From positions 299,837 through 363,836 of the forward strand of contig CAWBAV010000006.1 in the NCBI GenBank assembly GCA_963786865.1: a stretch of DNA of 64,000 bases, read 5' to 3'. The translations under genes and the position numbers were made by a program. This DNA is from an uncultured delta proteobacterium. Lineage in GTDB: Bacteria; Myxococcota_A; Polyangia; Polyangiales; Houyiibacteriaceae. Under the pieces are notes generated by a model that saw only the letters and a list, made by a program, of their open reading frames with translations, ran no database searches and was not told the origin of the DNA. The first letter of the stretch is position 1, and every line of letters begins with the position of its first letter. Below are positions 911-45,107 of this stretch, piece after piece.

Positions 911-930
911 GCCAGTGCCGGTATCAGCGG
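911..930 (+). repeat. Short CAGYGY-type hexanucleotide array (3 units)
   Basis: gccagt gccggt atcagc gg lies directly next to the inverted 105-nt element. It belongs to the same hexamer family as 12194, 20771, 21951, 22731 and 22923. Confidence 0.5.
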
Positions 931-934
931 AGAA

Positions 935-1040
935 CTGCTCGCGACGGGCGTGCTCGCGATTGGGACCCACTCGCCCCCAATTCCTCAAGACGCCCCACGG
1001 CTAGGCTCGACCCAATCGCTGCGCTGCCCATCCCGAGCCG
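935..1040 (-). repeat. 105-nt imperfect-palindromic intergenic element, copy C (inverted, divergent centre)
   Basis: The reverse complement matches copy A (21481..21585) 29/30 in the 5' arm (cggctcgggatgggcagcRcagcgattggg) and 29/30 in the 3' arm (cccaatcgcgagcacgcccgtcgcgagc). The centre of about 45 nt is unrelated. Confidence 0.8.
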
Positions 1041-1143
1041 TCCTCCTCCGAACGCTTCCAGTGTCAATGCCGCTGGCGCGGTATGGAGGGTTTCTCTTAT
1101 TAAGCAGCTTGACCCCGGCTATTGTCAAAGCAGGCTTCGGCAC

Positions 1144-6482: not shown

Positions 6483-8912
6483 GTGCTGCGCATGAGCGCA
6501 GTGGGGGGGCACACAAGACCTCGAAATCAGCCGTTTCGAAGGGTGGATGAGCCCTGGGAGCGGCCAAGGGGCACCGGCGAAGTTCTCGAGCGATGGCGCA
6601 GCGGTGGCACCTGGCGAAACGTGACCTGGAGTCATCCAGTCGAGCCGCGTCAGGCCAGTTTCGAACCCATGCCGCCCGGTTTGGCGCCCGGGGTTGCACG
6701 GGCTCTCGAGCAGCGTGGGATCCGGGAGCTGTACAGCCATCAGGCGCGGGCCTTCGAGCTCGCCACCCGCGGCAAGCACCTGGTCGTCGCGACTCCAACC
6801 GCCTCGGGGAAGAGCCTTTGCTACAATCTGCCGGTGCTCCAGGCGCTCGCGGACGACCCGAGCGCAACCGCCCTTTATCTGTTTCCGACCAAAGCACTGT
6901 CGCGGGACCAAGAAGAGGCATTGCGCGGGCTGATCCGCGATTCCGATCTCAGCGTCGGGGCGATCACGTACGATGGCGACACGCCTAACGACGCGCGTCG
7001 AGCGGCGCGGCAACGTGCGGGCGTCTTGCTCACGAACCCCGACATGCTTCATGCAGGCATCTTGCCGCACCACACGGGCTGGGCGCGTCTCTTTTCAAAC
7101 TTGAAGTACATCGTCGTCGACGAGCTTCACAGCTACCGCGGCATCTTCGGTTCGCACCTCGCCAACGTGATGCGGCGCCTCATGCGCATTGCTCGTTTTC
7201 ACGGCTCGTCCCCGAGCTTCCTCTTTGCGTCCGCAACGATCGGCAATCCGCAAGAGCATGCGTCGCGCATCTGCGGCGCGCCGGTCGATCTGATCGACCA
7301 AAGCGGTGCGCCGACCGGACCTCGGCAGCTGGTCGTGTACAATCCGCCTGTCGTGAACGCGGAGCTCGGGATCCGGCAGAGCTACATCAAGACCGCGGTG
7401 CGCCTGACCCAGGATCTCGTGCGGGCTGGAGTTCCCACGCTGGTCTTTGGAAATTCGCGCAACGGCGTGGAGGTCATGCTCAAGTATCTCCGCGATCGAC
7501 TCGCTCGCGATCAGATCGACCCGGCTGCGATTCATGCGTACCGCGGCGGCTATCTCCCGCAGACTCGCCGTCGTATCGAAGGTGCCCTGCGAAGTGGTGA
7601 AATTCGCTGCGTGGTCGCGACCAACGCACTCGAGCTAGGCATCGACATCGGTGCGCTCGATGCCGTCGTCTGTGCCGGATATCCGGGCACCATGGCTGGG
7701 CTTTGGCAGCGTTTCGGTCGAGCGGGGCGACGGCAGGATCTCTCACTGGCAGTGCTGGTCGCCTCGAGCAGTCCGGTCGACCAGTACATGGCCCGCCATC
7801 CGCGTCAGCTGATTTCGGCACCGATCGAGCAGGCGCGCATCGATCCGGACAACATCGAAATCCTGATTCAGCATCTCAAATGCGCCGCGTTCGAGCTCCC
7901 GTTCGAACCCGATGATGCATACGGGGACGTTCCAGACGATGCGCTCGCCGAAGCCCTCGACTACCTCGCCGACAACGGGGTCGTTCACTCCACGTCGAGC
8001 GCCGCGGGGGTGATCTATCACTGGGCATCGGACAGCTACCCGGCAAACAACGTTTCGCTTCGAAGCGCGAGTTGGGACAACTTCGTCATCATCGACCTCG
8101 AGGGAAATCGCACCATCGCTGAGATGGACTGGCGGAGCACGCACACCATGCTGCACGAGCAGGCGATCTATCAGCACGAGGGTGGACAGTACCAAGTCGA
8201 GCGGCTCGACTTCGACAACCACAAAGCCTTCGTGCGTTACGTGAAGCCCGACTACTACACGACCGCCATGACGCACAGCAAGGTTGCCGTTCTGGAGCAG
8301 GACCAGAGCTCCACAATCGATCTCGGCGAGGTGCCACTCGACGCTGGTCTCGGCGATGTGAGCGTCATCGAGAAGGTCGTCGGGTACAAGAAGATCAAGT
8401 TCCACACCCACGAAAACGTGGGTTACGGAGAGGTGCATCTCCCCGAGATGCAGAAGCACACGAGCTCGTTTTGGCTCACGTTTCCCGAGGACTTCGTACA
8501 GAGTCAGCCCGAGTCGCGGGCCGTCGTGGTCGATGCCCTGCGCGGTCTTTCGAAGGCGATGCACGTCGTGGGCGCGATCGGTTTGATGATCGATCCCCGC
8601 GACCTCGGGCGTACCCTCGGAAGCCGCAGCGAGGACGAGGCGCCGCCCGGGAAAGGACAAGGTCCTGGTTTCGACCCTACGATTTTTCTCTACGACACGG
8701 TGGCCGGCGGAATCGGCCTGGCGTCACGGCTCTTCGAAGAGCGTGAAGAGCTTCTGCGGCGTGCGCGTCGATTGATCGAGAGCTGCGGGTGCGATGAAGG
8801 ATGCCCCGGTTGCATCGGACCGGACGCTTCGGGCGCGGATGAGCCGGAGGCGGCGCGCAAGCGCCTGGTGCTCGATTTGCTCGATGCCGTTGGCGTGAGC
8901 GCCACCCACTGA
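6483..8912 (+). CDS. DEAD/DEAH-box helicase with C-terminal DUF1998 (MZB) domain, YprA/MrfA-like
   Basis: Observed motifs: ELYSHQARAF, VVATPTASGKSLCYNLPVL (motif I), VVDELHSYRG (DExH), and helicase C motifs. The C-terminal four-Cys cluster is CGCDEGCPGCIG. The N-terminus aligns with B. subtilis YprA (NVTWSHPVEPRQASFEPMP). The exact start is uncertain, within 6483..6543. Confidence 0.85.
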   Translation: MLRMSAVGGHTRPRNQPFRRVDEPWERPRGTGEVLERWRSGGTWRNVTWSHPVEPRQASFEPMPPGLAPGVARALEQRGIRELYSHQARAFELATRGKHLVVATPTASGKSLCYNLPVLQALADDPSATALYLFPTKALSRDQEEALRGLIRDSDLSVGAITYDGDTPNDARRAARQRAGVLLTNPDMLHAGILPHHTGWARLFSNLKYIVVDELHSYRGIFGSHLANVMRRLMRIARFHGSSPSFLFASATIGNPQEHASRICGAPVDLIDQSGAPTGPRQLVVYNPPVVNAELGIRQSYIKTAVRLTQDLVRAGVPTLVFGNSRNGVEVMLKYLRDRLARDQIDPAAIHAYRGGYLPQTRRRIEGALRSGEIRCVVATNALELGIDIGALDAVVCAGYPGTMAGLWQRFGRAGRRQDLSLAVLVASSSPVDQYMARHPRQLISAPIEQARIDPDNIEILIQHLKCAAFELPFEPDDAYGDVPDDALAEALDYLADNGVVHSTSSAAGVIYHWASDSYPANNVSLRSASWDNFVIIDLEGNRTIAEMDWRSTHTMLHEQAIYQHEGGQYQVERLDFDNHKAFVRYVKPDYYTTAMTHSKVAVLEQDQSSTIDLGEVPLDAGLGDVSVIEKVVGYKKIKFHTHENVGYGEVHLPEMQKHTSSFWLTFPEDFVQSQPESRAVVVDALRGLSKAMHVVGAIGLMIDPRDLGRTLGSRSEDEAPPGKGQGPGFDPTIFLYDTVAGGIGLASRLFEEREELLRRARRLIESCGCDEGCPGCIGPDASGADEPEAARKRLVLDLLDAVGVSATH

Positions 8913-10247: not shown

Positions 10248-11651
10248 ATGAATCGATTCTGGTTGGCTTTTGGAATTCTGGGCGGCGTCGCCATGGCGGT
10301 GTCTGGTTGTGGTGAGAACAGCAGCGGCGACGTTGGGCCACTCGAGGGCTTCGTCTGCGGCAAAGACGGAAGCACCTATTCCGTCGAAGATGCGGTTCGA
10401 GGGGAGCATGAGGTCGAACACCGGGGGCGCTGCGACGCCCCGATGCACTGCGGCTCGCCCGAGGATTGCTTCGTGGGCGACGAATGCATGCCGGCCGACG
10501 CAGATGGCAATTGGTGCATCCCGGGTCCCACTCGTTGCAACTGCCCTGGCGTCTTCGAGCCGGTCTGCGGCGGCGACTCGCGCAACTACATCAATGCCTG
10601 CGAGGCTGCCTGTGCGGGTGTGGGCATCCGGCACGAGGGGTATTGCCAGGAGCCTCCGGGAGAGGGCTGTGTCCGCGCCGGTTGTAGCGGTCAGCTCTGC
10701 GTCGAAGAGGGCATGGACATCGCGAGCACCTGCGAGTGGCGTCCCGTGTACGAGTGCTACCAGCAGGCCAGCTGCGAGCGCCAGGAAAACGGCCAGTGCG
10801 GCTTCACGCCGACCCACGAGCTCGTCGACTGTCTCGAGCGATTCGGCGAGGGTATGTGCAGCGTCGATCCGCGTTGGCAGGATGGATTCGAGGCGGAATG
10901 CAGCAGCCCTCAGGTGCCCGGGATCGGCGGCGTCATCGCCGTGGAGCCTCATCAGATGATGCACCTCGGCGAATGGTTCGGTGCGAGCTTCAAGTTGCTC
11001 GAGCCGCCCGTCTTTGGCGACCTGTATGAAGGAGAGGGCTTGATCTTCTGCGATGGTGAGCGGACTGCTCTTCAGGGGCGAGTCCGGATGACGCCGCTCG
11101 GAGACCTCGAGGTCGAATGCCGAATCCTGCCCGAGATACATCCCGGCGAGTGCTACGACGATGGCGATTGCGCGCCCGGGACCTTCTGCGAGGCCGGGCA
11201 GTGCATCGCGAACTGCCCCGTCGAGACGCACATCCTCAACTTCCGAGGGGAGTGCGTGCCCAAGTGCTACGGCCCAGAACAGTGCGGCGACGAGCAGCAC
11301 TGCAACGCGGGCGAGGTCTGCTTGCAAGACCCGGCCTGCCCCGAATGCGACGTCTGCGTCGGCTGGTGCGAGGCACCGCCGGACGAATGCAGACCCACCG
11401 GTTGCAACGGCGAGATCTGCGCGAGCCAGGACGTGGCTTCTCCTTGTGTCGCGTTGCCTGAGTTCGCCTGTTACCAGGAGGTCGGCATTTGTGAGATGCA
11501 GACCTGGGGCCAGTGCGGCTGGACTCCCACGCCCGAGCTCGACGAATGCCTCTCTCAGTTTGATTGCCGGGCAGAGGGCTGTGCTGACGGCGCGTACTGC
11601 GGTTACTGCTGGACCAGCTGGGAATGCATCCCTGAAGGCGCAGTGTGTTGA
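10248..11651 (+). CDS. Cys-rich lipoprotein with Kazal-type domain(s) and two copies of an eight-Cys module
   Basis: Signal and lipobox: MNRFWLAFGILGGVAMAVSGC. Kazal signature: CNCPGVFEPVCGGDSRNYINACEAACAGVGIRHEGYC, plus a weaker first copy VCGKDGSTYSVEDA. A duplicated module is CVRAGCSGQLC...CGFTPTHELVDCL and CRPTGCNGEIC...CGWTPTPELDECL. The ORF track starts at a TTG at 10221. Confidence 0.75.
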   Translation: MNRFWLAFGILGGVAMAVSGCGENSSGDVGPLEGFVCGKDGSTYSVEDAVRGEHEVEHRGRCDAPMHCGSPEDCFVGDECMPADADGNWCIPGPTRCNCPGVFEPVCGGDSRNYINACEAACAGVGIRHEGYCQEPPGEGCVRAGCSGQLCVEEGMDIASTCEWRPVYECYQQASCERQENGQCGFTPTHELVDCLERFGEGMCSVDPRWQDGFEAECSSPQVPGIGGVIAVEPHQMMHLGEWFGASFKLLEPPVFGDLYEGEGLIFCDGERTALQGRVRMTPLGDLEVECRILPEIHPGECYDDGDCAPGTFCEAGQCIANCPVETHILNFRGECVPKCYGPEQCGDEQHCNAGEVCLQDPACPECDVCVGWCEAPPDECRPTGCNGEICASQDVASPCVALPEFACYQEVGICEMQTWGQCGWTPTPELDECLSQFDCRAEGCADGAYCGYCWTSWECIPEGAVC

Positions 11652-12171: not shown

Positions 12172-13398
12172 CTAGGGTCGGTCGCGCGGCAAGGCCAGCG
12201 CCAGTGCCAGTGCCGGTGTCAGCCGCCGCTGCCTGGGTCTACGTAGGCTGGAGTGGTTTCGTCGGTCAGGCGGTTTTCGAGGAAACCTTCTGGAAGAGAG
12301 ACTTTTTGCCGGCCGGCAGTCTTTCCTCGGGGCACTCGCATCGCGTCGGGAGGGAAAGGGTTCGGATGCGTCGACGGTGCGGAGTACTACTTCGAGCTCC
12401 TCGAGGCGGGTTACTCGCATCAGTCGCGATCGGAGCTTGGCGCTTCCACGGAAGCCCTTGGTGTACCAACTGCTATGCCGACGGAACATTCGCATCGCCT
12501 GGGTTTCACCCGCCCATTCGCTCAGCAAGCGCGCGTGCTCGAGCGCGATTTCGACGACCTCGCCAAAGGTCGGCGGGTTCGGCGGCTCGTGGCCCTCGAA
12601 GACCTCGGCCAGATCTCGAAAGAGCCATGGGCGTCCGAGACATCCCCGGCCGATCACCACGCCATCGCATCCGGTCATGCGCATCATGCGGAGCGCGTCG
12701 TGAGCTTCCCAGATATCCCCGTTGCCGAGTACTGGTATCGATCGAACGTGTTGCTTCAGGCGAGCTATCGCTTCCCACTGGGCATCGCCGTCGTAGAGCT
12801 GTGAAGCCGTTCGCGCATGCAGAGCAACGGCGGCGCATCCCTCCTCTTCGGCGACGCGACCTGCGTCCTCGTAGGTGAGCAAGCTCTCGTCGATGCCCAT
12901 TCGGAACTTGATCGTGACCGGAATCTCGCCCGCGTTCTGGACAGCCGCGCGGACGATGTTCGCGAGGAGGCGTGGCTTTGCGGGGATGGCCGACCCGCCA
13001 CCCTTGCGCGTCACCTTCGGAACGGGGCATCCGAAGTTCATGTCGATGTGGTCCACGTGCCCTTCGCCAACCAGCCATTTCACTGCTTCGCCGACGTAGT
13101 GAGGATCGACGCCGTAGAGCTGGAGGCTGCGCGGCGATTCGTCTTTGCCGAACTCCGCGAGCATCAGGGCCTTGGCGCGTCCCTCGACCAGAGGTCGCGC
13201 CGTCACCATCTCGCTCACGTAAAGGCCTGCTCCGAAGCGCCTGCAAATTGCGCGAAAGGGCCAGTTGGTGACACCGGCCATCGGCGCGAGCACCACCGGC
13301 GGCCAGACCGACATCGGACCAATTTCGATCGGCGCAAATTCTCCGAGGCGCGCCACGGGCACCGCACGGTTCAGCTCGTTCTTGTACACCTGCTCCAT
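12172..13398 (-). CDS. dus: tRNA-dihydrouridine synthase; the 3' end is probably frameshifted
   Basis: Observed motifs: LAPMAGVTNWPFR, DMNFGCPVPKVTRKGGGSA, VTIKFRMG, HARTASQ. After ...TVDASE the conserved Dus tail PFPPDAMRVPRGKTAGRQKVSLPEGFLENRL continues in another frame, ending at a stop at 12219. The in-frame tail is R/P/S-rich and non-homologous. Confidence 0.85.
   Translation of the reverse strand: MEQVYKNELNRAVPVARLGEFAPIEIGPMSVWPPVVLAPMAGVTNWPFRAICRRFGAGLYVSEMVTARPLVEGRAKALMLAEFGKDESPRSLQLYGVDPHYVGEAVKWLVGEGHVDHIDMNFGCPVPKVTRKGGGSAIPAKPRLLANIVRAAVQNAGEIPVTIKFRMGIDESLLTYEDAGRVAEEEGCAAVALHARTASQLYDGDAQWEAIARLKQHVRSIPVLGNGDIWEAHDALRMMRMTGCDGVVIGRGCLGRPWLFRDLAEVFEGHEPPNPPTFGEVVEIALEHARLLSEWAGETQAMRMFRRHSSWYTKGFRGSAKLRSRLMRVTRLEELEVVLRTVDASEPFPSRRDASAPRKDCRPAKSLSSRRFPRKPPDRRNHSSLRRPRQRRLTPALALALALPRDRP
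12194..12229 (+). repeat. CAGYGY-type hexanucleotide array (6 units)
   Basis: gccagc gccagt gccagt gccggt gtcagc cgccgc. It overlaps the 3' end of dus. Confidence 0.6.
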
Positions 13399-20241: not shown

Positions 20242-20763
20242 ATGGCGGCTCAAAGCGACCGAAGCTTCTGGATCTTCAACGCGGCGGTTTCGAGTGCTGC
20301 CGTCGGGTTCCTCGGCTGGCTTCTGCTCATTCGTGAAGGCGGCGGCGTCGACGCAGACCTCGGTTTCATGCCCGGCGTGAACGCAGCGCTCAACGCCGCC
20401 GCCGCCTCCTTGCTGCTTCTCGGGCTGGCCGCGATCCGAAGCGGGCGCCGGGCAGTCCACAAGCGACTGATGGTTTCAGCGTTTGCCGCCTCGACCGTGT
20501 TCCTAGTGGGATATGTTCTTTACCACTACGTGCACGGCGACACTCCGTACCAGGGGGTCGGAACGATTCGCACCATCTACTTCACGATCCTGATCACCCA
20601 CGTTCTTCTGTCGATCGTGATGCTCCCGATGATTTTGACGACGTTCTATTTCGCGGCGCGTGAGCGCTTTGCAGCGCACAAGAAGCTCGCGAGGTGGACG
20701 CTACCGATCTGGCTCTACGTGTCGGTGACGGGTGTGATCATCTACTTCATGCTGCGCCCGTAG
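20242..20763 (+). CDS. DUF420-family membrane protein
   Basis: 173 aa with four TM helices and conserved His residues (VHKRLM, ILITHVLLS), as in DUF420/CtaM-like proteins. Confidence 0.6.
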   Translation: MAAQSDRSFWIFNAAVSSAAVGFLGWLLLIREGGGVDADLGFMPGVNAALNAAAASLLLLGLAAIRSGRRAVHKRLMVSAFAASTVFLVGYVLYHYVHGDTPYQGVGTIRTIYFTILITHVLLSIVMLPMILTTFYFAARERFAAHKKLARWTLPIWLYVSVTGVIIYFMLRP

Positions 20764-20770
20764 GAGTGCT

Positions 20771-20840
20771 CGTGTCCGTGACAGCGCCAGTGTCAGGGCC
20801 AGTGTCAGCGTCAGCGCCGGTGCCAGCGTCCGTGTCGGCG
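20771..20840 (+). repeat. CAGYGY-type hexanucleotide array (about 11 units)
   Basis: cgtgtc cgtgac agcgcc agtgtc agggcc agtgtc agcgtc agcgcc ggtgcc agcgtc cgtgtc. It starts 8 nt after the DUF420 stop. Confidence 0.8.
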
Positions 20841-20960
20841 ACTGTTGTTCCGGACGCACATCGTGCGTCTGGGGCACGCCCTTCCTTGTAAGATCCTCTG
20901 CGGTTTGCTGGTGCAGCAGCTGGCCCGGATCTTGCTTCGTTTTTCGGGCAGGATTTTGCC

Positions 20961-21440
20961 GTGAACGTCCGCGTACATTCTTTTTCGATTTACGCACTAG
21001 GGGCCGCTTTGCTCGGGCCATCCTCCCTGGGACTTGCGCAGGCCGCCCGATCCACGGAAGCACCACGATCGTCGATCGCGTACGCAGGGGATGAGCTCGC
21101 CTTTACGTCGACCACCGAGGACGTCGAGCATTCGCTGCATCGAGCCACGAAGAAGGTTCGCCGTGCCGGTGTTGGCCTAGGACTGTCGCTGGCGGCTGTT
21201 CCGGTGGGCGCCGCTCTGATCACGAAAGGCATGCAACGGAGTGTCGCTGCCTCTGCCGACGACGGTGACGCAATGCTCCTCGCCGGAATGGTGACGGCGA
21301 TCGGCGGCTTGGTCGGAGTCGTCGCGAGCGGCGCGGTTCTCGCCCCGGCCCGGCGAGACAAACGCCGTCTCCAAATGGCCCTCGCACCTACGACCCTGCG
21401 CCTCGGACCCGGCTCTGTAGCGATTGCCCATCGGTTCTAA
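20961..21440 (+). CDS. Hypothetical secreted/membrane protein
   Basis: GTG start. The signal-like N-terminus is FSIYALGAALLGPSSLGLAQA. Two Gly/Ala-rich TM segments follow. I recognised no homology. Confidence 0.4.
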   Translation: MNVRVHSFSIYALGAALLGPSSLGLAQAARSTEAPRSSIAYAGDELAFTSTTEDVEHSLHRATKKVRRAGVGLGLSLAAVPVGAALITKGMQRSVAASADDGDAMLLAGMVTAIGGLVGVVASGAVLAPARRDKRRLQMALAPTTLRLGPGSVAIAHRF

Positions 21441-21480
21441 ACGGCGGCAGTGTCTCTGAGTCGATATCTACGTAGGGGAG

Positions 21481-21585
21481 CGGCTCGGGATGGGCAGCAC
21501 AGCGATTGGGCGGGAGGCGAGACGTACGGAGTCGTAGAGAGACGGCCGAGCGGGCCCCAATCGCGAGCACGCCCGTCGCGAGCCG
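21481..21585 (+). repeat. 105-nt imperfect-palindromic intergenic element, copy A
   Basis: 102/105 identical to 22809..22913. The terminal arms are mutually complementary. It lies 96 nt upstream of the yeaQ-like ATG. Confidence 0.9.
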
Positions 21586-21681
21586 CCCCCCGGTGTGAAG
21601 CATGACGTTCGACCCGTTGGACCTGGGAATTCTTTACCCGTGGCTCGGTTTGTTCGACACTTCGCCCCAAGGAGAGCCTCG

Positions 21682-21933
21682 ATGGGAATCGTTTCGTGGA
21701 TTGTGTTCGGATTGATCGCTGGCTTGCTGGCCAAGTTCATCATGCCGGGCGATGACTCGGGTGGCTTCATCAAGACGACCGTGATCGGTGTCGTGGGCGC
21801 GCTCATCGGCGGCTACATCGGCACGCGGCTCGGCTTCGGCACCGTCACCGGATTCAACCTGCGCAGTCTCGCGATCGCCAGCGCAGGAGCGCTGATCGTG
21901 TTGTGGGTCTATCGGTTGGTGAAGAAGAACTGA
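21682..21933 (+). CDS. GlsB/YeaQ/YmgE-family (transglycosylase-associated) small membrane protein
   Basis: The ATG at 21682 follows aaggagag. MGIVSWIVFGLIAGLLAKFIMPG...GFIKTTVIGVVGALIGGYIG is the family signature. Confidence 0.8.
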   Translation: MGIVSWIVFGLIAGLLAKFIMPGDDSGGFIKTTVIGVVGALIGGYIGTRLGFGTVTGFNLRSLAIASAGALIVLWVYRLVKKN

Positions 21934-21950
21934 GCCCCCCGCGCCCCGAT

Positions 21951-22040
21951 CGTGCCAGCGCTAGCGCTAGCGCCAGTGGCAGTGTCAGCGTCAGTGTCAG
22001 CGCCAGTGCCAGAGATAGTGTCAGCGCCCACGTCCGTCTG
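21951..22040 (+). repeat. CAGYGY-type hexanucleotide array (about 15 units)
   Basis: cgtgcc agcgct agcgct agcgcc agtggc agtgtc agcgtc agtgtc agcgcc agtgcc agagat agtgtc agcgcc cacgtc cgtctg. It starts 18 nt after the yeaQ-like stop. It is preceded by ccgatcgtgcc, as is array 22923. Confidence 0.8.
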
Positions 22041-22058
22041 ACTCTTCTTTGTCATCGC

Positions 22059-22133
22059 GATCTCCTTTTCGCCTGTGTCTGGGGTCGGGCTTCGCCCTTT
22101 CGGGGAACCCCACACCCAGGCGAAAAGGAGATC
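22059..22133 (+). promoter_or_regulatory. Long hairpin sequestering the RBS of the four-helix-bundle gene
   Basis: The 27-nt arms 22059..22085 and 22107..22133 pair at 25/27 positions. The right arm contains AAGGAG (22125..22130), 7 nt before the ATG at 22138. Confidence 0.6.
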
Positions 22134-22137
22134 ACTC

Positions 22138-22464
22138 ATGCGACTCATCATTCAGCAACGGGCGCTCGAGGCAGCACGCGGGCTTCGGCAGGTGATGCCG
22201 GTCATCAAGAAGCGGGACCGGTCGCTCTTCGATCAGATCCATCGGGCGATGAATAGCGTCGTGCTCAACATCGCGGAGGCTGAAGGAAACGATCCCGGCA
22301 CGGCCAAGGCGCGCTTCGCGTCGGCCTGCGGGTCCGCCAAAGAAGTGCGGGCCGGCATCCAACTTGGAGTTGCATACGGCTACTTCCCGAGCGCAACAGT
22401 GAAATCCGTCGACACCGCGCTCGACGAAGTCTGCGCGATGTCGTGGCGGCTCTCGGGCCGCTAG
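22138..22464 (+). CDS. Four-helix-bundle protein (23S rRNA intervening-sequence protein family)
   Basis: 108 aa. DQIHRAMNSVVLNIAEAEGN...ARFASACGSAKEVRAGIQLGVAYGYF matches the TIGR02436/PF05635 pattern (NIAEG...GS..E). Confidence 0.8.
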   Translation: MRLIIQQRALEAARGLRQVMPVIKKRDRSLFDQIHRAMNSVVLNIAEAEGNDPGTAKARFASACGSAKEVRAGIQLGVAYGYFPSATVKSVDTALDEVCAMSWRLSGR

Positions 22465-22536
22465 ACACAGCCAAGGGCATCCGAGCCCTTGTCCCCGAAG
22501 ACCGCCGCTGTCCCCGCCACTGAAAGTGACGCGCGC

Positions 22537-22725
22537 AGGGGCACGGGCGAACGCGACGCGGGGTTCCGTCGAACGGCTCGGCTTGCAATTGTGGTCGGAT
22601 GCACTGGAGGGGTTGGACCACGCAAGCCTCGCCTCGGCGCTCACGCCAATCGGAGGTGGTTGCTCGCTTGCCGATTGTCATTCGCGACGTCGACTCCACC
22701 CCAGATCGCGTTCGCCCGTGCCCCT
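22537..22725. repeat. Perfect 20-bp inverted repeat pair separated by 149 bp
   Basis: aggggcacgggcgaacgcga (22537..22556) is the exact reverse complement of tcgcgttcgcccgtgcccct (22706..22725). Confidence 0.85.
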
Positions 22726-22730
22726 CCGTA

Positions 22731-22774
22731 CGGCAGTGTCACTCGCAGCGGCAGCGGCAGCGGCAGCGGCAGGG
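22731..22774 (+). repeat. Hexanucleotide array including four perfect CGGCAG units
   Basis: cggcag tgtcac tcgcag cggcag cggcag cggcag cggcag gg. Confidence 0.8.
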
Positions 22775-22808
22775 CCCGCGCGCGTGCATCGACGCGTACA
22801 AAGGAGGG

Positions 22809-22913
22809 CGGCTCGGGATGGGCAGCACAGCGATTGGGCGGGAGGCTAGACGTACGGAGTCGTAAAGAGACGGCCGAGCGGGACCCAATCGCGAGCACGC
22901 CCGTCGCGAGCCG
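22809..22913 (+). repeat. 105-nt imperfect-palindromic intergenic element, copy B
   Basis: 102/105 identical to copy A. It lies between the convergent four-helix-bundle and cstA genes. Confidence 0.9.
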
Positions 22914-22922
22914 TCCTCCGAT

Positions 22923-22946
22923 CGTGCCAGTGCCAGTGTCAGTGAA
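22923..22946 (+). repeat. CAGYGY-type hexanucleotide array (4 units) containing the cstA stop codon
   Basis: cgtgcc agtgcc agtgtc agtgaa. The cstA stop (tca on the + strand, 22939..22941) lies inside it. Confidence 0.6.
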
Positions 22947-24672
22947 CCGCGCCTTGCTCGGTCCGTTGGATCCGGCGCAGCGCGAGGACGCCTTCCACGA
23001 TCATCCAGAGCAGCAAGACGAGAAGAAGCGAGGCGAGGGCGGCGAGTGGGGCGTTTCCTTCTGCGAGGAAGTCTTGCAGCTTTGCGAAGAGCGCGAGGCC
23101 AGCGACCGGCATGACCAGCGCCATGGGGATGACCAGCGGCCATACCGGACGCTTTCGTGCGAGGAAGTAGAGGGCCAGCGTCATCAGGGTGAGCGCGGCT
23201 AGAAGTTGATTGCTTGCGCCAAAGATCGGCCAGAGCACCCATCCGACGGCCTTGGCTTGGCCGGTGCTCGGGTCGGGGGTTTCGGCGATCGCCAAGTACA
23301 TCGCGGGCACGACGGCGATGATCGTGGCGATGTACGGATTGGTGAGCGGCTTGAACCGGATGACTGCTCCGATCTCGCTGAGGATGAAGCGCTGAATGCG
23401 AGCGGCCGTGTCGAGTGAGGTGGCTGCGAAGGCGATCACCAGGACCGCCATCAAGGTGCGCGCGAGCTCCGGAGACAAGCCGACTGCTTCTAGGAACGCG
23501 CCGCCACCGAGTACGAACGCGGCGGCCTTGTTGCCGCCCGCGTGCGCCCAGCTGTCGTAGTAGATCGCCCAGCTGAGATCATCGACCGCGCCTTGGCCCG
23601 GCAAGGCGCAGGCGCCGACCAAGCCGATGCCGGCGACGGCGGCAAGCGTGGCCGCGAGCGCGAGCGACCCTTCACCGAGCATGCCGCCGTATCCGATCAT
23701 GCGGGCGTCCGATAGTCGATCGATTTGCTTCGAGGTCGTTCCGGCTGCGACCAGGCCGTGAAACCCGCTGATCGCGCCGCACGCGATGGTGACGAAGAGA
23801 ATGGGAAAGATCGAAGGCGCCCCAGCTTCTGGGCTACGGTAGATCGGTGCGTCGAACTCCGGGTGAGCGATGAGAACGCCCAGAAAGAGAAGACCCAGAC
23901 CGACGAAAAGCTGATGGCTGTTGATGTAGTCGCGCGGTTGAAGAAGCAGCCAGACCGGCAGAAGACTCGCGATGGCCGAATACACCAAGAGGAAGAAGAT
24001 CCAGCCCGTCGTTGCCGTGTGCTTGTCGACGCCCATCGCGACGAAGTCGATGGGGACTTTGGTACCCACCCAGACGAAGATGTAGAGCACGATGAGGGCG
24101 ATCACCGACGGCCAGAGGATCTTCACGCGGCGCTTGTAGATGAGCCAACCGATCAGGAGGGCCACGATGATCTGGATGTTGATCGGAATGACGCTGGCCG
24201 GCTCACTCACGAAGAGGCCGGCAATCGCCATCGCGAAGACCGCAAGAACGAGCCAAATCAGTACCAGCACGAAGCACATGAACAGAATCCGCGCGCGTCC
24301 GCTCACCGTCTTTGCGGTGATGTCCGCGATCGAACGACCCTTTTCGCGCACGCTCACGACCACCGCGCCGAAGTCGTGCGCGGCGCCCATGAAGATCGTG
24401 CCGAGAACCACCCACGCGAGGGCCGGGCCCCATCCCCAATAGGCCGCCACACAGGGGCCGATGATCGGCGCAGCGCCCGCGACCGAAGTGAAGTGGTGTC
24501 CGAACAGGATGGCCCGTTGCGTTGGCACGAAGTCCAGCCCGTCCTCGAGCTCATGGGCGGGCGTGATCAGGTCCTCTTGGTCCTGGTAGATCCGCTCGCC
24601 GAGGAATCGCGCGTAGAAGCGGTATGCGACCAGGAATGCACCGAGGATCAGAGCTGCGGCCAAGGCTGCCAT
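22939..24672 (-). CDS. cstA: Carbon starvation protein CstA (peptide/pyruvate transporter family)
   Basis: 577-aa polytopic membrane protein. ILFGHHFTSVAGAAPIIGP and FVTIACGAISGFHGLVAAGTTSKQ are CstA hallmarks. Confidence 0.9.
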   Translation of the reverse strand: MAALAAALILGAFLVAYRFYARFLGERIYQDQEDLITPAHELEDGLDFVPTQRAILFGHHFTSVAGAAPIIGPCVAAYWGWGPALAWVVLGTIFMGAAHDFGAVVVSVREKGRSIADITAKTVSGRARILFMCFVLVLIWLVLAVFAMAIAGLFVSEPASVIPINIQIIVALLIGWLIYKRRVKILWPSVIALIVLYIFVWVGTKVPIDFVAMGVDKHTATTGWIFFLLVYSAIASLLPVWLLLQPRDYINSHQLFVGLGLLFLGVLIAHPEFDAPIYRSPEAGAPSIFPILFVTIACGAISGFHGLVAAGTTSKQIDRLSDARMIGYGGMLGEGSLALAATLAAVAGIGLVGACALPGQGAVDDLSWAIYYDSWAHAGGNKAAAFVLGGGAFLEAVGLSPELARTLMAVLVIAFAATSLDTAARIQRFILSEIGAVIRFKPLTNPYIATIIAVVPAMYLAIAETPDPSTGQAKAVGWVLWPIFGASNQLLAALTLMTLALYFLARKRPVWPLVIPMALVMPVAGLALFAKLQDFLAEGNAPLAALASLLLVLLLWMIVEGVLALRRIQRTEQGAVH

Positions 24673-43394: not shown

Positions 43395-45107
43395 GTGGCC
43401 GCGGACCCGGCAAAGAGACTGACAGCGGAGGGCGCTTCGAGCGACGAAGAAGAGACCCTTCGCGAGGAGGCCCGCCGCTGGCGCGAAGAGGACGTGAAGG
43501 CCGCGACCACGCGTCATCCCCTGCGCAAGGATCGCTTCACCACACTCAGCGACCTCGAGGTGCCAGACCTGCTCACGCCGGCGGACCTCGACGAGGATTA
43601 CCAGCGCGACCTCGGTTTTCCCGGGCAGTTTCCCTATACGCGCGGGGTGCAGCCGACGATGTACCGCGGTCGCCTCTGGACCATGCGGATGTTCGCGGGT
43701 TTCGGGACCCCCCGTCAGACGAACGAGCGTTTTCGTTACTTGCTCGACCAGGGACAGACCGGTCTTTCCACGGCCTTCGATTTTCCAACGTTGATGGGCT
43801 ACGACAGCGACTCCCCTCGCTCGCTCGGCGAGGTGGGCATGGTGGGCGTCGCCGTCGACACTCTCCATGACATGGAGGTTCTCTTCGACCAGATCCCGCT
43901 CGACAAGGTCACCACGTCGATGACGATCAATGGTCCGGCGGCCGTCCTCCTCGGATTCTACGTGGCGCTGGCGGACAAACGCGGCATTCGGCGAGACCAG
44001 ATCGGTGGCACGGTCCAAAACGATTGCCTCAAGGAGTTCATCGCACAGCATGCCTGGGTGGTTCCGCCACGCCCGGCAATGCGAATCGTCACCGATTCGA
44101 TCGAGTTTTGTACGAAAGAAGTTCCGCGCTGGAACAGCGTCAGCATCAGCGGCTACCACATTCGCGAGGCGGGCTCGACCGCTGCACAGGAGCTTGCGTT
44201 CACGATCGCCGATGGACTCGAATACGTGAAATGGGGAGTCGAGCGTGGCTTGGACGTCGATGCGTTCGCACCGCGTCTCTCGTTCTTTTTCGACGTTCAC
44301 AGCGACTTCTTCGAAGAGGTTGCGAAGTTCCGTGCTGCCCGTCGCATGTGGGCCCGACTCATGAAAGACCGGTTCAATCCGAAGAACCCCGGCTCGATGA
44401 TGCTGCGCACGCACGCCCAGACGGCCGGTGTTTCGCTGACCGCGCAGCAGCCCTACAACAACGTCGCGCGCGTCGCACTCCAGGCTCTTGCCGCGGTCTT
44501 GGGCGGCACTCAGTCCCTACACACCAACAGCCTCGACGAGACATTCGCGCTTCCGACCGAAGAAGCCGTGACCATCGCGCTTCGTACGCAGCAGATCATC
44601 GCCGAGGAGTCGGGCGTGACCAACAGCATCGACCCGCTGGCGGGCAGTTACTTCGTCGAATGGATGACCGATCGCATGGAAGAAGAGGCCATGGGTTACA
44701 TCCGCAAGATCGACGAGCTCGGAGGGATGGTGGAAGCGGTCGAGCGCGGCTATCCGCAGCGTGAGATCGCCGCTTCGGCGTATCGTCTTCAGCGGCAGAT
44801 CGAGAGTGGCGAGAAGACGCTCGTGGGCGTGAACAAGTACGTCCAGGACGAGCACGCCGACATTCCGACCCTCCGGGTCGACGAGTCGATCCAGAAGGAG
44901 CAGGTCGAAAGCCTGGCGAGGGTCAAGGCCCAGCGAGATGCCGGTGCCGTCTCGAAGGCCCTCGCAGCGATCGCCGAAGACTGCCGCGCCGATCGCAACG
45001 TCATGCCAGGCATCGTCGAAGCTGCCAAGGTTTACTGCACTGAACAAGAGATCTGCGACGTCTTCCGCGGGGTCTTCGGGCAGTACCAAGACCGCCCCGA
45101 ATTCTAG
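43395..45107 (+). CDS. Methylmalonyl-CoA mutase-family large subunit (catalytic TIM-barrel domain only)
   Basis: A GTG follows aggagg. Observed motifs: [68 protein letters not shown]. No C-terminal DxHxxG B12-binding domain is present. Confidence 0.88.

Follow-up and report, generated by a model that had tools for sequence, protein, structure and literature searches.

The 2.2-kb islet between DUF420 and cstA in a 64,000-nucleotide stretch of contig CAWBAV010000006.1, from an uncultured delta proteobacterium of the Polyangiales, appears to be no single element but two swollen gaps beside a core gene, yeaQ, that have been filled by a modular kit of repeats specific to this Polyangiales lineage. 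Arrays of a hexamer, (CAGYGN)n, probably mediate the rearrangement of the gene cassettes in these gaps, a reading in which we place moderate confidence. The whole stretch is called the window below, and labels of L plus a number (such as L044) denote the genomic or metagenomic loci of relatives with which it was compared. Three small genes lie between DUF420 and cstA, namely hyp159, yeaQ and a four-helix-bundle gene (4HB-1), and they are embedded among arrays, hairpins and two dispersed elements, H and X, in the following order:

20242-20763, DUF420 (Pfam 4e-43, above cut-off)
20771..20842, plus strand, array a1, (CAGYGN)n, starting 8 nt past the DUF420 stop codon
20846..20876, plus strand, 14-bp hairpin leading the hyp159 cassette (-22.9 kcal/mol, z -6.4), an extension of the hairpin at 20850-20872
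20961..21440, plus strand, hyp159, an open reading frame (ORF) of 159 aa that is absent from all relatives at the DUF420-cstA locus
21469..21592, plus strand, H copy A (apical variant ii), a REPIN/ERIC-like imperfect hairpin of 124 nt
21682..21933, plus strand, yeaQ, GlsB/YeaQ/YmgE family (Transgly_assoc, PF04226; Pfam 1.1e-12, 48.4 bits against a cut-off of 25.3)
21952..22028, plus strand, array a2, the 5' boundary of the 4HB cassette
22029..22058, plus strand, conserved leader of 4HB-1 (…GTCTGACTCTTCTTTGTCATCGC), from an alignment of 61 loci
22059..22133, plus strand, 27-bp hairpin with the Shine-Dalgarno sequence of 4HB-1, AAGGAG, in its 3' arm (-48.8 kcal/mol, z -6.9)
22138..22464, plus strand, 4HB-1 (PF05635 / TIGR02436, Avd-like), a basic protein with an isoelectric point (pI) of 9.9
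22472..22491, plus strand, 7-bp hairpin just past the 4HB stop codon, of modest z (-3.2)
22504..22758, plus strand, element X, about 255 nt, structured and bounded by inverted repeats (z -6.6 and -7.1)
22731..22772, plus strand, array a3, GCAGCG type, between X and H
22797..22920, plus strand, H copy B, placed as is typical of H, with 17 nt between its 3' end and the stop codon of cstA
22924..22945, plus strand, array a4, which overlaps and supplies the cstA stop codon; its orthologue in L044 is 123 nt long
22939-24672, minus strand, cstA (CstA scores above the Pfam cut-off)

An earlier note on this DNA, made from its letters alone, had listed most of these features, and inspection of the sequence together with repeat tools found the arrays, hairpins, inverted repeat, elements and genes that it named, with the exception of one supposed remnant of H.

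A variable locus around yeaQ

Relatives of the DUF420 protein at 80-95% identity number in the hundreds, and their sources name them Polyangiales. Among the loci compared, the DNA downstream of DUF420 takes compact, cstA-less and differently ordered expanded forms. The compact arrangement DUF420-yeaQ-cstA has gaps of 13 nt and 8 nt in L048/L049 (84% DUF420 identity) and of 64 nt and 3 nt in L053/L054 (86%). At 87% identity, in L046/L047 and L052, DHDPS directly follows yeaQ and cstA is absent. The closest relatives, L044/L045 (91%), and the metagenomic contig L062 share the order DUF420, array, 4HB-1, 4HB-2 (a second four-helix-bundle gene), array, yeaQ as far as each contig extends, and L050 starts as L044 does until its contig stops within 4HB-1. 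Beyond yeaQ, L044 continues with a reversed H, an array, a CBS gene, a second reversed H, another array and cstA. The two gaps beside yeaQ are therefore a real variable hotspot. The gene itself was found in every relative with recovered DNA downstream of DUF420, including the compact ones, and so belongs to the conserved core of the locus. The earlier note had called all three small genes accessory, a description that fails for yeaQ.

Direct comparison of the window with L044 resolved four colinear blocks:

Block 1: DUF420 and its array
Block 2: the 3' end of H and yeaQ
Block 3: array, leader, hairpin and 4HB-1 (window 21952-22464 against L044 8549-9055, 85% identity)
Block 4: array and the end of cstA

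Blocks 2 and 3 are swapped in order, so that the 4HB-1 cassette lies on opposite sides of yeaQ in the two genomes, and the H near cstA is inverted in L044 relative to the window. All four blocks terminate in an array, or within 7 nt of one, in at least one of the two genomes. These differences bear out the earlier proposal of a hotspot at which cassettes are shuffled. Its further claim, that the repeats themselves did the shuffling, goes beyond what this comparison shows: the shared blocks do end at arrays, and a causal role of the arrays is an inference.

Traces of the same modules occur elsewhere in this neighborhood. The compact DUF420-yeaQ gap of L053 holds exactly two hexamer units (8007-8025, CAGCGTCAGTGT) directly after the stop codon, which may have seeded arrays, served as their target or been left by them as a footprint. 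L052 carries an internally deleted 4HB-1 pseudogene (11168-11465) in which the leader is fused to about codon 64; it sits in another gap, behind a 135-nt array directly after a DHO_dh gene, and is a decayed cassette. An Abhydrolase_2 gene between Biotin_lipoyl and Aminotran_5 is likewise present in some relatives and absent in others.

Polar hexamer arrays and the cassettes they adjoin

An array detector found six arrays in the window, four of them inside the 2.2-kb islet, and none in any of 10 and 20 shuffled windows. Tandem Repeats Finder reported periods of 6, 12, 18, 24 and 30, and the consensus over 2799 units is C (.99), A (.90), G (.97), Y (T.59, C.39), G (.99), N. Outside the islet, an isolated array at 12194..12223 (plus strand) and a short one at 44134-44153, far from any 4HB gene, are both oriented as the islet arrays are. 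The arrays tend to begin or end at their neighbors: in L044 the orthologue of a1 starts directly at the stop codon and another array directly abuts the 3' end of H, and about half of the arrays beside 4HB modules start or end within 14 nt of the neighboring stop codon. Exactly two additional CAGTGC units set L045 apart from L044, L050 and L062. With their head-to-tail units and a unit number that varies between close relatives, the arrays qualify as microsatellites. Under a strict detector no locus had arrays of both orientations, and array orientation was independent of that of H, which L028 carries both ways. We found no description in the literature of such arrays in myxobacteria, nor of a link between arrays and 4HB genes.

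Two further kinds of small element were seen within or beside arrays. Hairpins of about 35 nt (CCCCGTAAA...CACGGGG; CCCCGTGGAC...CTACGGGG) lie inside arrays or are bracketed by two-unit hexamer seeds, at L046 8520-8650, downstream of 4HB-2 in L068, L092, L106 and L115, and in the DUF420-yeaQ gap of an 87% relative that has neither H nor 4HB. An element beginning GGCGAATTAGCCCTTTCAAAAAGGGGACTGTCCCC... is embedded in the arrays that follow 4HB-2 in L074, L103, L107 and L113.

The strongest regularity concerns 4HB-1. Its protein is a clear match to Pfam 23S_rRNA_IVP (50.2 bits, cut-off 33.8) and to TIGR02436 (46.8 bits, cut-off 24), and a profile built from four members matches PDB 2GSC at 4.6e-6. 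A published comparison relates 2GSC to Avd of diversity-generating retroelements (DGRs), which works with nucleic acid (PMC10053308), and the 4HB proteins are basic (pI 9.1-9.9). When metagenomes were scanned with an alignment of four 4HB proteins, 80 loci matched at 81-94% identity, and 69 of them had enough upstream DNA to be counted. An array in the same orientation lies upstream of 4HB-1 in all 69, with none reversed, against a background of 23 arrays in 289 kb. The array ends 60-140 nt before the ATG in 66 of the 69, and in the same number the intervening DNA holds the conserved leader and a covarying hairpin of 25-27 bp. Compensatory double changes affect 11 of 23 pairs of this hairpin in the 61-sequence alignment, and the hairpin is predicted to sequester the ribosome-binding site of 4HB-1.

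In at least 60 of the 80 loci a convergent paralogue, 4HB-2 (48-50% identical), directly follows 4HB-1, and beyond it come a mirror-image covarying hairpin and leader, then an array with the same chromosomal orientation as the upstream one. The 4HB pair is therefore bracketed by direct arrays. Its surroundings vary widely, as the upstream neighbors at 52 loci fall into about 40 unrelated protein clusters. The module mostly sits between convergent genes, with the upstream gene co-oriented in 43 of 52 cases and the downstream gene convergent in 23 of 28; these neighbor statistics are approximate because our gene caller, based on GC content at third codon positions (GC3), misses many genes. The window holds 4HB-1 without 4HB-2, and remnants of 4HB-2 exist among the other loci. 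Element X follows 4HB-1 in the window as it does in the closest metagenomic relatives (L055, L059, L060). The earlier expectation that the same repeats would flank 4HB genes elsewhere thus holds for the arrays; H adjoins 4HB loci in only 6 of 80 cases and X in 10 of 80. One locus, L038 (DASRZF010000150, 3960-4987), carries a solo cassette of 4HB-2 type after an MBL-fold gene, with an H 3'-arm remnant and an array before it and a full H and more arrays after it.

The other cassette, hyp159, has no match in Pfam or NCBIfam, and its codon-position GC is atypical (0.72/0.56/0.67), a weak coding signal. Its sequence predicts a secreted or membrane protein, with a signal peptide and two hydrophobic helices; this layout is conserved, and six homologues reach E below 1e-10. 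In L137, a 67% homologue has the same order of array, hairpin and gene, with a short array downstream, and lies next to an SMC-like gene in another genomic context. Since array and hairpin were kept beside a different gene, hyp159 behaves as an array-tagged cassette.

Elements H and X and the coding status of the islet

Element H had been recognized in the earlier note as two copies of a 105-nt element; the copies are real, and their length is 124 nt. Copies A and B are 93% identical, and a third copy, C (925..1058, minus strand, apical variant i), has short hexamer runs on both sides. On a reading of the sequence, copy C is flanked by two genes, one on the plus strand with its start near 1147 and one on the minus strand with its start near 811. 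The 3' flanks of copy C closely match those in L033, so the two appear orthologous. H consists of 36-nt arms and a 45-nt spacer and folds at -73.6 kcal/mol (z -5.0 against shuffled sequence). Among the aligned copies (49 by eye, 39 formally), the consensus structure has 40 pairs, 10 of which show compensatory changes, and the outer stem covaries, with AU 18, GC 15 and GU 5 at one pair. At variable pairs of the long stem G.U outnumbers A.C by 22 to 3, and one U.G pair is invariant; one particular strand of H therefore folds. The apical part occurs in three variants, in nearly all copies of which the loop keeps CTAG (window 21520-21530 and 22848-22858) while the loop sequence around it varies; a few copies have CGAG, CCAG, CGGG or GTTG instead.

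The arms are nearly invariant across at least 10 metagenome-assembled genomes (MAGs), a conservation that for the 3' arm exists partly by construction, as the search used an exact 24-mer. That 24-mer occurs in 43 GTDB genome stretches, nearly all from Polyangiales/Myxococcota MAGs. There are three copies of H in the 64 kb and about 20 exact 24-mer matches on the contigs of one MAG (DASRZF01). In 23 of 45 copies a gene converges on the 3' end and has its stop codon 7-58 nt away from it, and the 5' side almost never abuts a gene. Copies cut down to the 3' arm occur in L007, L029, L034, L038 and L040, and L044 has a shorter 3'-end fragment upstream of yeaQ. No flanking direct duplication was visible among the 49 aligned copies, and H is palindromic throughout. 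An H-X-array locus (L014, CAVPYI010000002) on a 654-kb contig of a MAG binned as Gemmatimonadales may reflect a binning error or horizontal transfer. The remnant of H that the earlier note placed at 21932-21956 was rejected, as its score was equaled by 92 of 2000 shuffles and, outside the array, it has only CCGATCGTG in common with H.

Element X contains a perfect 20-bp inverted repeat (22537-22556 / 22706-22725) within a 69-nt inverted repeat that is 75% complementary (22504-22572 / 22690-22758). It is a dispersed repeat, found at 29 loci with 75-92% identity, and in at least 12 cases stands directly 5' of H. Several MAGs have a constant X-H junction; in the window an array separates the two.

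The window has a GC content of 63.7%. Our gene caller is crude, missing many genes (71% coding), and long ORFs span the other seemingly non-coding gaps, which makes the islet a plausible candidate for the least coding stretch, in line with the earlier note. Nothing beyond chance was found in the islet in searches for sigma-70 promoters and terminators: the one weak intrinsic terminator, inside array a1, compares with 1.5 expected by chance, and no U-tract terminator occurs at H, X or the 4HB hairpin. Rfam 15 gave no match at gathering score and no rRNA over the 64-kb window, and a threshold relaxed to E 5 added nothing but chance matches to hairpins of miRNA precursors. The islet had no match among phages and viral contigs; against plasmids the yeaQ coding sequence was the sole match, and 4HB had none by tblastn. 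A phage or plasmid origin was rejected on these grounds.

Competing explanations and likeness to known systems

Under the explanation we favor, the arrays, polar modules that start at or near flanking stop codons and change length in whole units, would serve as portable homology or landing sites. The DNA between like-oriented arrays would be inserted, moved, truncated and deleted through slippage and through recombination of the arrays. Events of this kind would account for the opposite order of yeaQ and the 4HB cassette in the window and in the 91% relative, for the loss of the partner 4HB-2 from the window and for H copies trimmed to their 3' arm. The units moved would be the 4HB cassette (array, leader, hairpin sequestering the ribosome-binding site and Avd-like gene, normally half of a convergent pair), the hyp159 cassette (array, small hairpin, gene) and a non-coding X-H composite of about 255 nt of X followed by 124 nt of H. 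H and X would themselves be non-autonomous structured elements of the REPIN, ERIC or miniature inverted-repeat transposable element (MITE) kind, the single-strand form of which, on one strand, may be recognized by selection or by a trans-acting enzyme. The long hairpin before 4HB would most likely act in translation control, or else be an RNase III processing site.

Several observations weigh against this explanation. No transposase, integrase or RAYT was seen in the window, which was not scanned systematically and for which no RAYT query was made, and the precomputed Pfam list of the syntenic L044 has no recombinase within about 8 kb. The arrays are imperfect, so long exact homology between loci is rare, which weakens a simple RecA-dependent model. 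A clean pair of filled and empty sites, a target-site duplication or a circular form was not found among the loci compared. A permissive detector finds both array orientations in L059, L103, L120 and L123, and L055 and L059 carry a degenerate reversed array adjoining a reversed X, so that polarity is tied to the adjoining element and not to the chromosome. Replication strand was also considered as the source of polarity, and a link could not be shown: the sign of GC skew matched the orientation of the arrays in no more than about 11 of 16 loci, and four loci are mixed. H can face either way with respect to the arrays, so its route of movement is probably not that of the gene cassettes. The arrays could also be a consequence of insertion, growing from a seed at element ends, and not its cause. 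Finally, the 80 loci come from many organisms, so their many contexts are no proof of many copies per genome.

The main competitor holds that hairpins and arrays are host-selected regulatory RNA features, such as 3' untranslated region (3'-UTR) stabilizers, insulators that separate convergent genes or small-RNA genes, and that the differences between genomes are ordinary insertions and deletions. The position of H just beyond converging stop codons in 23 of 45 copies, its covariation and strand-specific G.U pairs, its nearly identical arms in 10 or more MAGs, the apparently orthologous site of copy C in L033 and the folding of X and H, far better than that of shuffled sequence, are all consistent with this idea. 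We nevertheless consider it unlikely, because the G.U-tolerant strand is antisense to the adjacent gene, so that the best H hairpin is not in that 3' UTR, and because neither a U-tract terminator nor an Rfam match accompanies it. The inversion of H near cstA between the window and L044, the common truncated 3'-arm copies and the presence of one 4HB cassette type in about 40 contexts also argue against it, and the arm conservation is in part forced by the 24-mer search. Another proposal, that the arrays are binding platforms for basic oligomeric 4HB proteins in one nucleoprotein system for autoregulation or for guided recombination or mobility, has a model in TRAP, which binds spaced GAG triplets. 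The array-4HB association is complete and polar (69 of 69), the CAG triplets recur exactly every 6 nt with C, A, G and the G at position 5 nearly invariant, and on the 4HB-1 sense strand the translation-blocking hairpin comes downstream of the array. The proteins are basic and related to 2GSC and to the nucleic-acid-working Avd (PMC10053308). Binding is, however, a conjecture drawn from sequence, the arrays are oriented oppositely toward 4HB-2, they also occur far from 4HB genes (window 12194; beside H and hyp159), and hitch-hiking of the cassette in arrays accounts for the association equally well, which leaves this proposal rather doubtful.

Two other explanations fared worse. The islet could be an integron-like cassette array without integrase (CALIN) in which H is the attC site, given small genes beside structured imperfect hairpins with no integrase in view, an H copy (A) following hyp159, and strand-specific folding that recalls attC bottom-strand recombination. 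This is very improbable: H ends in ...AGGAGGGCGG and ...CCGTCCTCCGATCG, without the RYYYAAC / GTTRRRY core sites, and its copies are 93% identical, whereas the attC sites of different cassettes differ widely. Moreover, yeaQ is a core gene, H stands beside 4HB genes in only 6 of 80 loci, and it mostly adjoins ordinary genes; lacking the defining features of attC, it was rejected as such a site. Least credible of all is a coding role for the arrays, as repeat peptides read from an opposite-strand ATG or as extensions of neighboring genes. The palindromic hairpin does supply a second Shine-Dalgarno sequence and ATG (MTKS...) reading into the array, and most reading frames are open. The ATG is, however, lost at many loci (CGAGGAC upstream of 4HB-1; ATC, AGG or ATA on the 4HB-2 side), the two variable unit positions never fall on wobble positions except in the frame with TGA stops, the implied codons ACT, GCT, CCA and TCA are unusual for a genome of 64% GC, and the putative ORF ends arbitrarily within the antisense strand of the neighboring gene. 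The arrays are therefore not coding, and the divergent MTK ORF was rejected.

Beyond array-mediated rearrangement, which remains the explanation we favor, lies a more speculative and in our estimate quite unlikely extension: the arrays and the convergent basic Avd-like pair may form a new kind of genetic element, with the arrays as cis sites and landing pads. A 4HB oligomer would bind the spaced CAG triplets in DNA or RNA, and the 4HB pair, hyp159 and X-H would move between the 3' ends of genes with no need of a classical transposase or integrase. Four-helix-bundle genes of PF05635 occur very widely, and we know of no role for them outside DGRs. If true, this extension would give stand-alone proteins of the 23S rRNA intervening-sequence family their first function. 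In one lineage, 4HB genes now have a strict and testable grammar (array, leader, hairpin, gene, convergent paralogue, mirror image, array), which makes scattered genes of this kind accessible to experiments on array binding, hairpin processing and array-bounded mobility, and which is the part of this work most worth following up. The analysis also documents a mosaic extragenic repeat family in the little-studied Polyangiales, for which we found no earlier report in the literature, and whose repeats break short-read assemblies, as in a DASRZF contig that ends inside a cassette.

H most resembles the REPINs and REP-BIMEs of Pseudomonas and E. coli, which are mobilized by RAYT transposases (PMC3116915, PMC2817692). 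Like these, it is extragenic, with two inverted arms and a spacer forming one long imperfect hairpin, its 3' arm has a small palindrome of its own (TCGCGA...TCGCGA), single-arm remnants exist, and it lies just beyond stop codons in mosaics with X and arrays. It differs in its greater length (124 nt), in arms with fixed conserved differences and three apical variants, in the hexamer arrays that accompany it, which BIMEs do not have, and in that no RAYT gene was found linked to it, no RAYT query having been made. The ERIC and Correia-type MITE-like elements of enterobacteria and Neisseria, imperfect palindromes of about 100-150 bp, are similar in size, long imperfect palindrome, intergenic location, cross-species conservation and internal variants. 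In contrast to them, H belongs to Polyangiales, and a terminal inverted repeat with target-site duplication could not be shown for it.

The arrays invite comparison with microsatellites and with short tandemly repeated (STRR) heptamers of heterocystous cyanobacteria, with which they share intergenic head-to-tail units of 6-7 nt, one polarity per array and changes by whole units. Unlike these, the CAG-Y-G-N unit has two freely varying positions, and the arrays abut stop codons and are tied in fixed orientation to particular gene cassettes. With integrons and CALINs the islet shares small genes that are each linked to a structured site, an order that varies between relatives and the lack of a recombinase nearby; it differs in that it has none of the features that define attC, in that its linked sites consist of near-identical repeats or of hexamer arrays, and in that one of the 'cassettes', yeaQ, is a core gene. 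Small and basic, the 4HB protein is a clear member of PF05635/TIGR02436, a family that a large CRISPR survey names as 23S rRNA IVP among proteins linked to CRISPR arrays (PMC10910872). The long perfect stem before it recalls the RNase III-cut stems of rRNA intervening sequences, yet the gene sits between yeaQ and cstA, outside any 23S rRNA intervening sequence, in a 64-kb window without rRNA. It also differs from DGR Avd in its company, as no reverse transcriptase (RVT) family occurs among the called genes within 8 kb in the Pfam list of the syntenic L044, a search that did not extend to template and variable repeats, and from other PF05635 genes in forming a convergent pair of 48%-identical paralogues bracketed by hexamer arrays. 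Each ingredient of the islet thus has a known analogue, in REPINs and BIMEs, ERIC, microsatellites and STRR, and PF05635.

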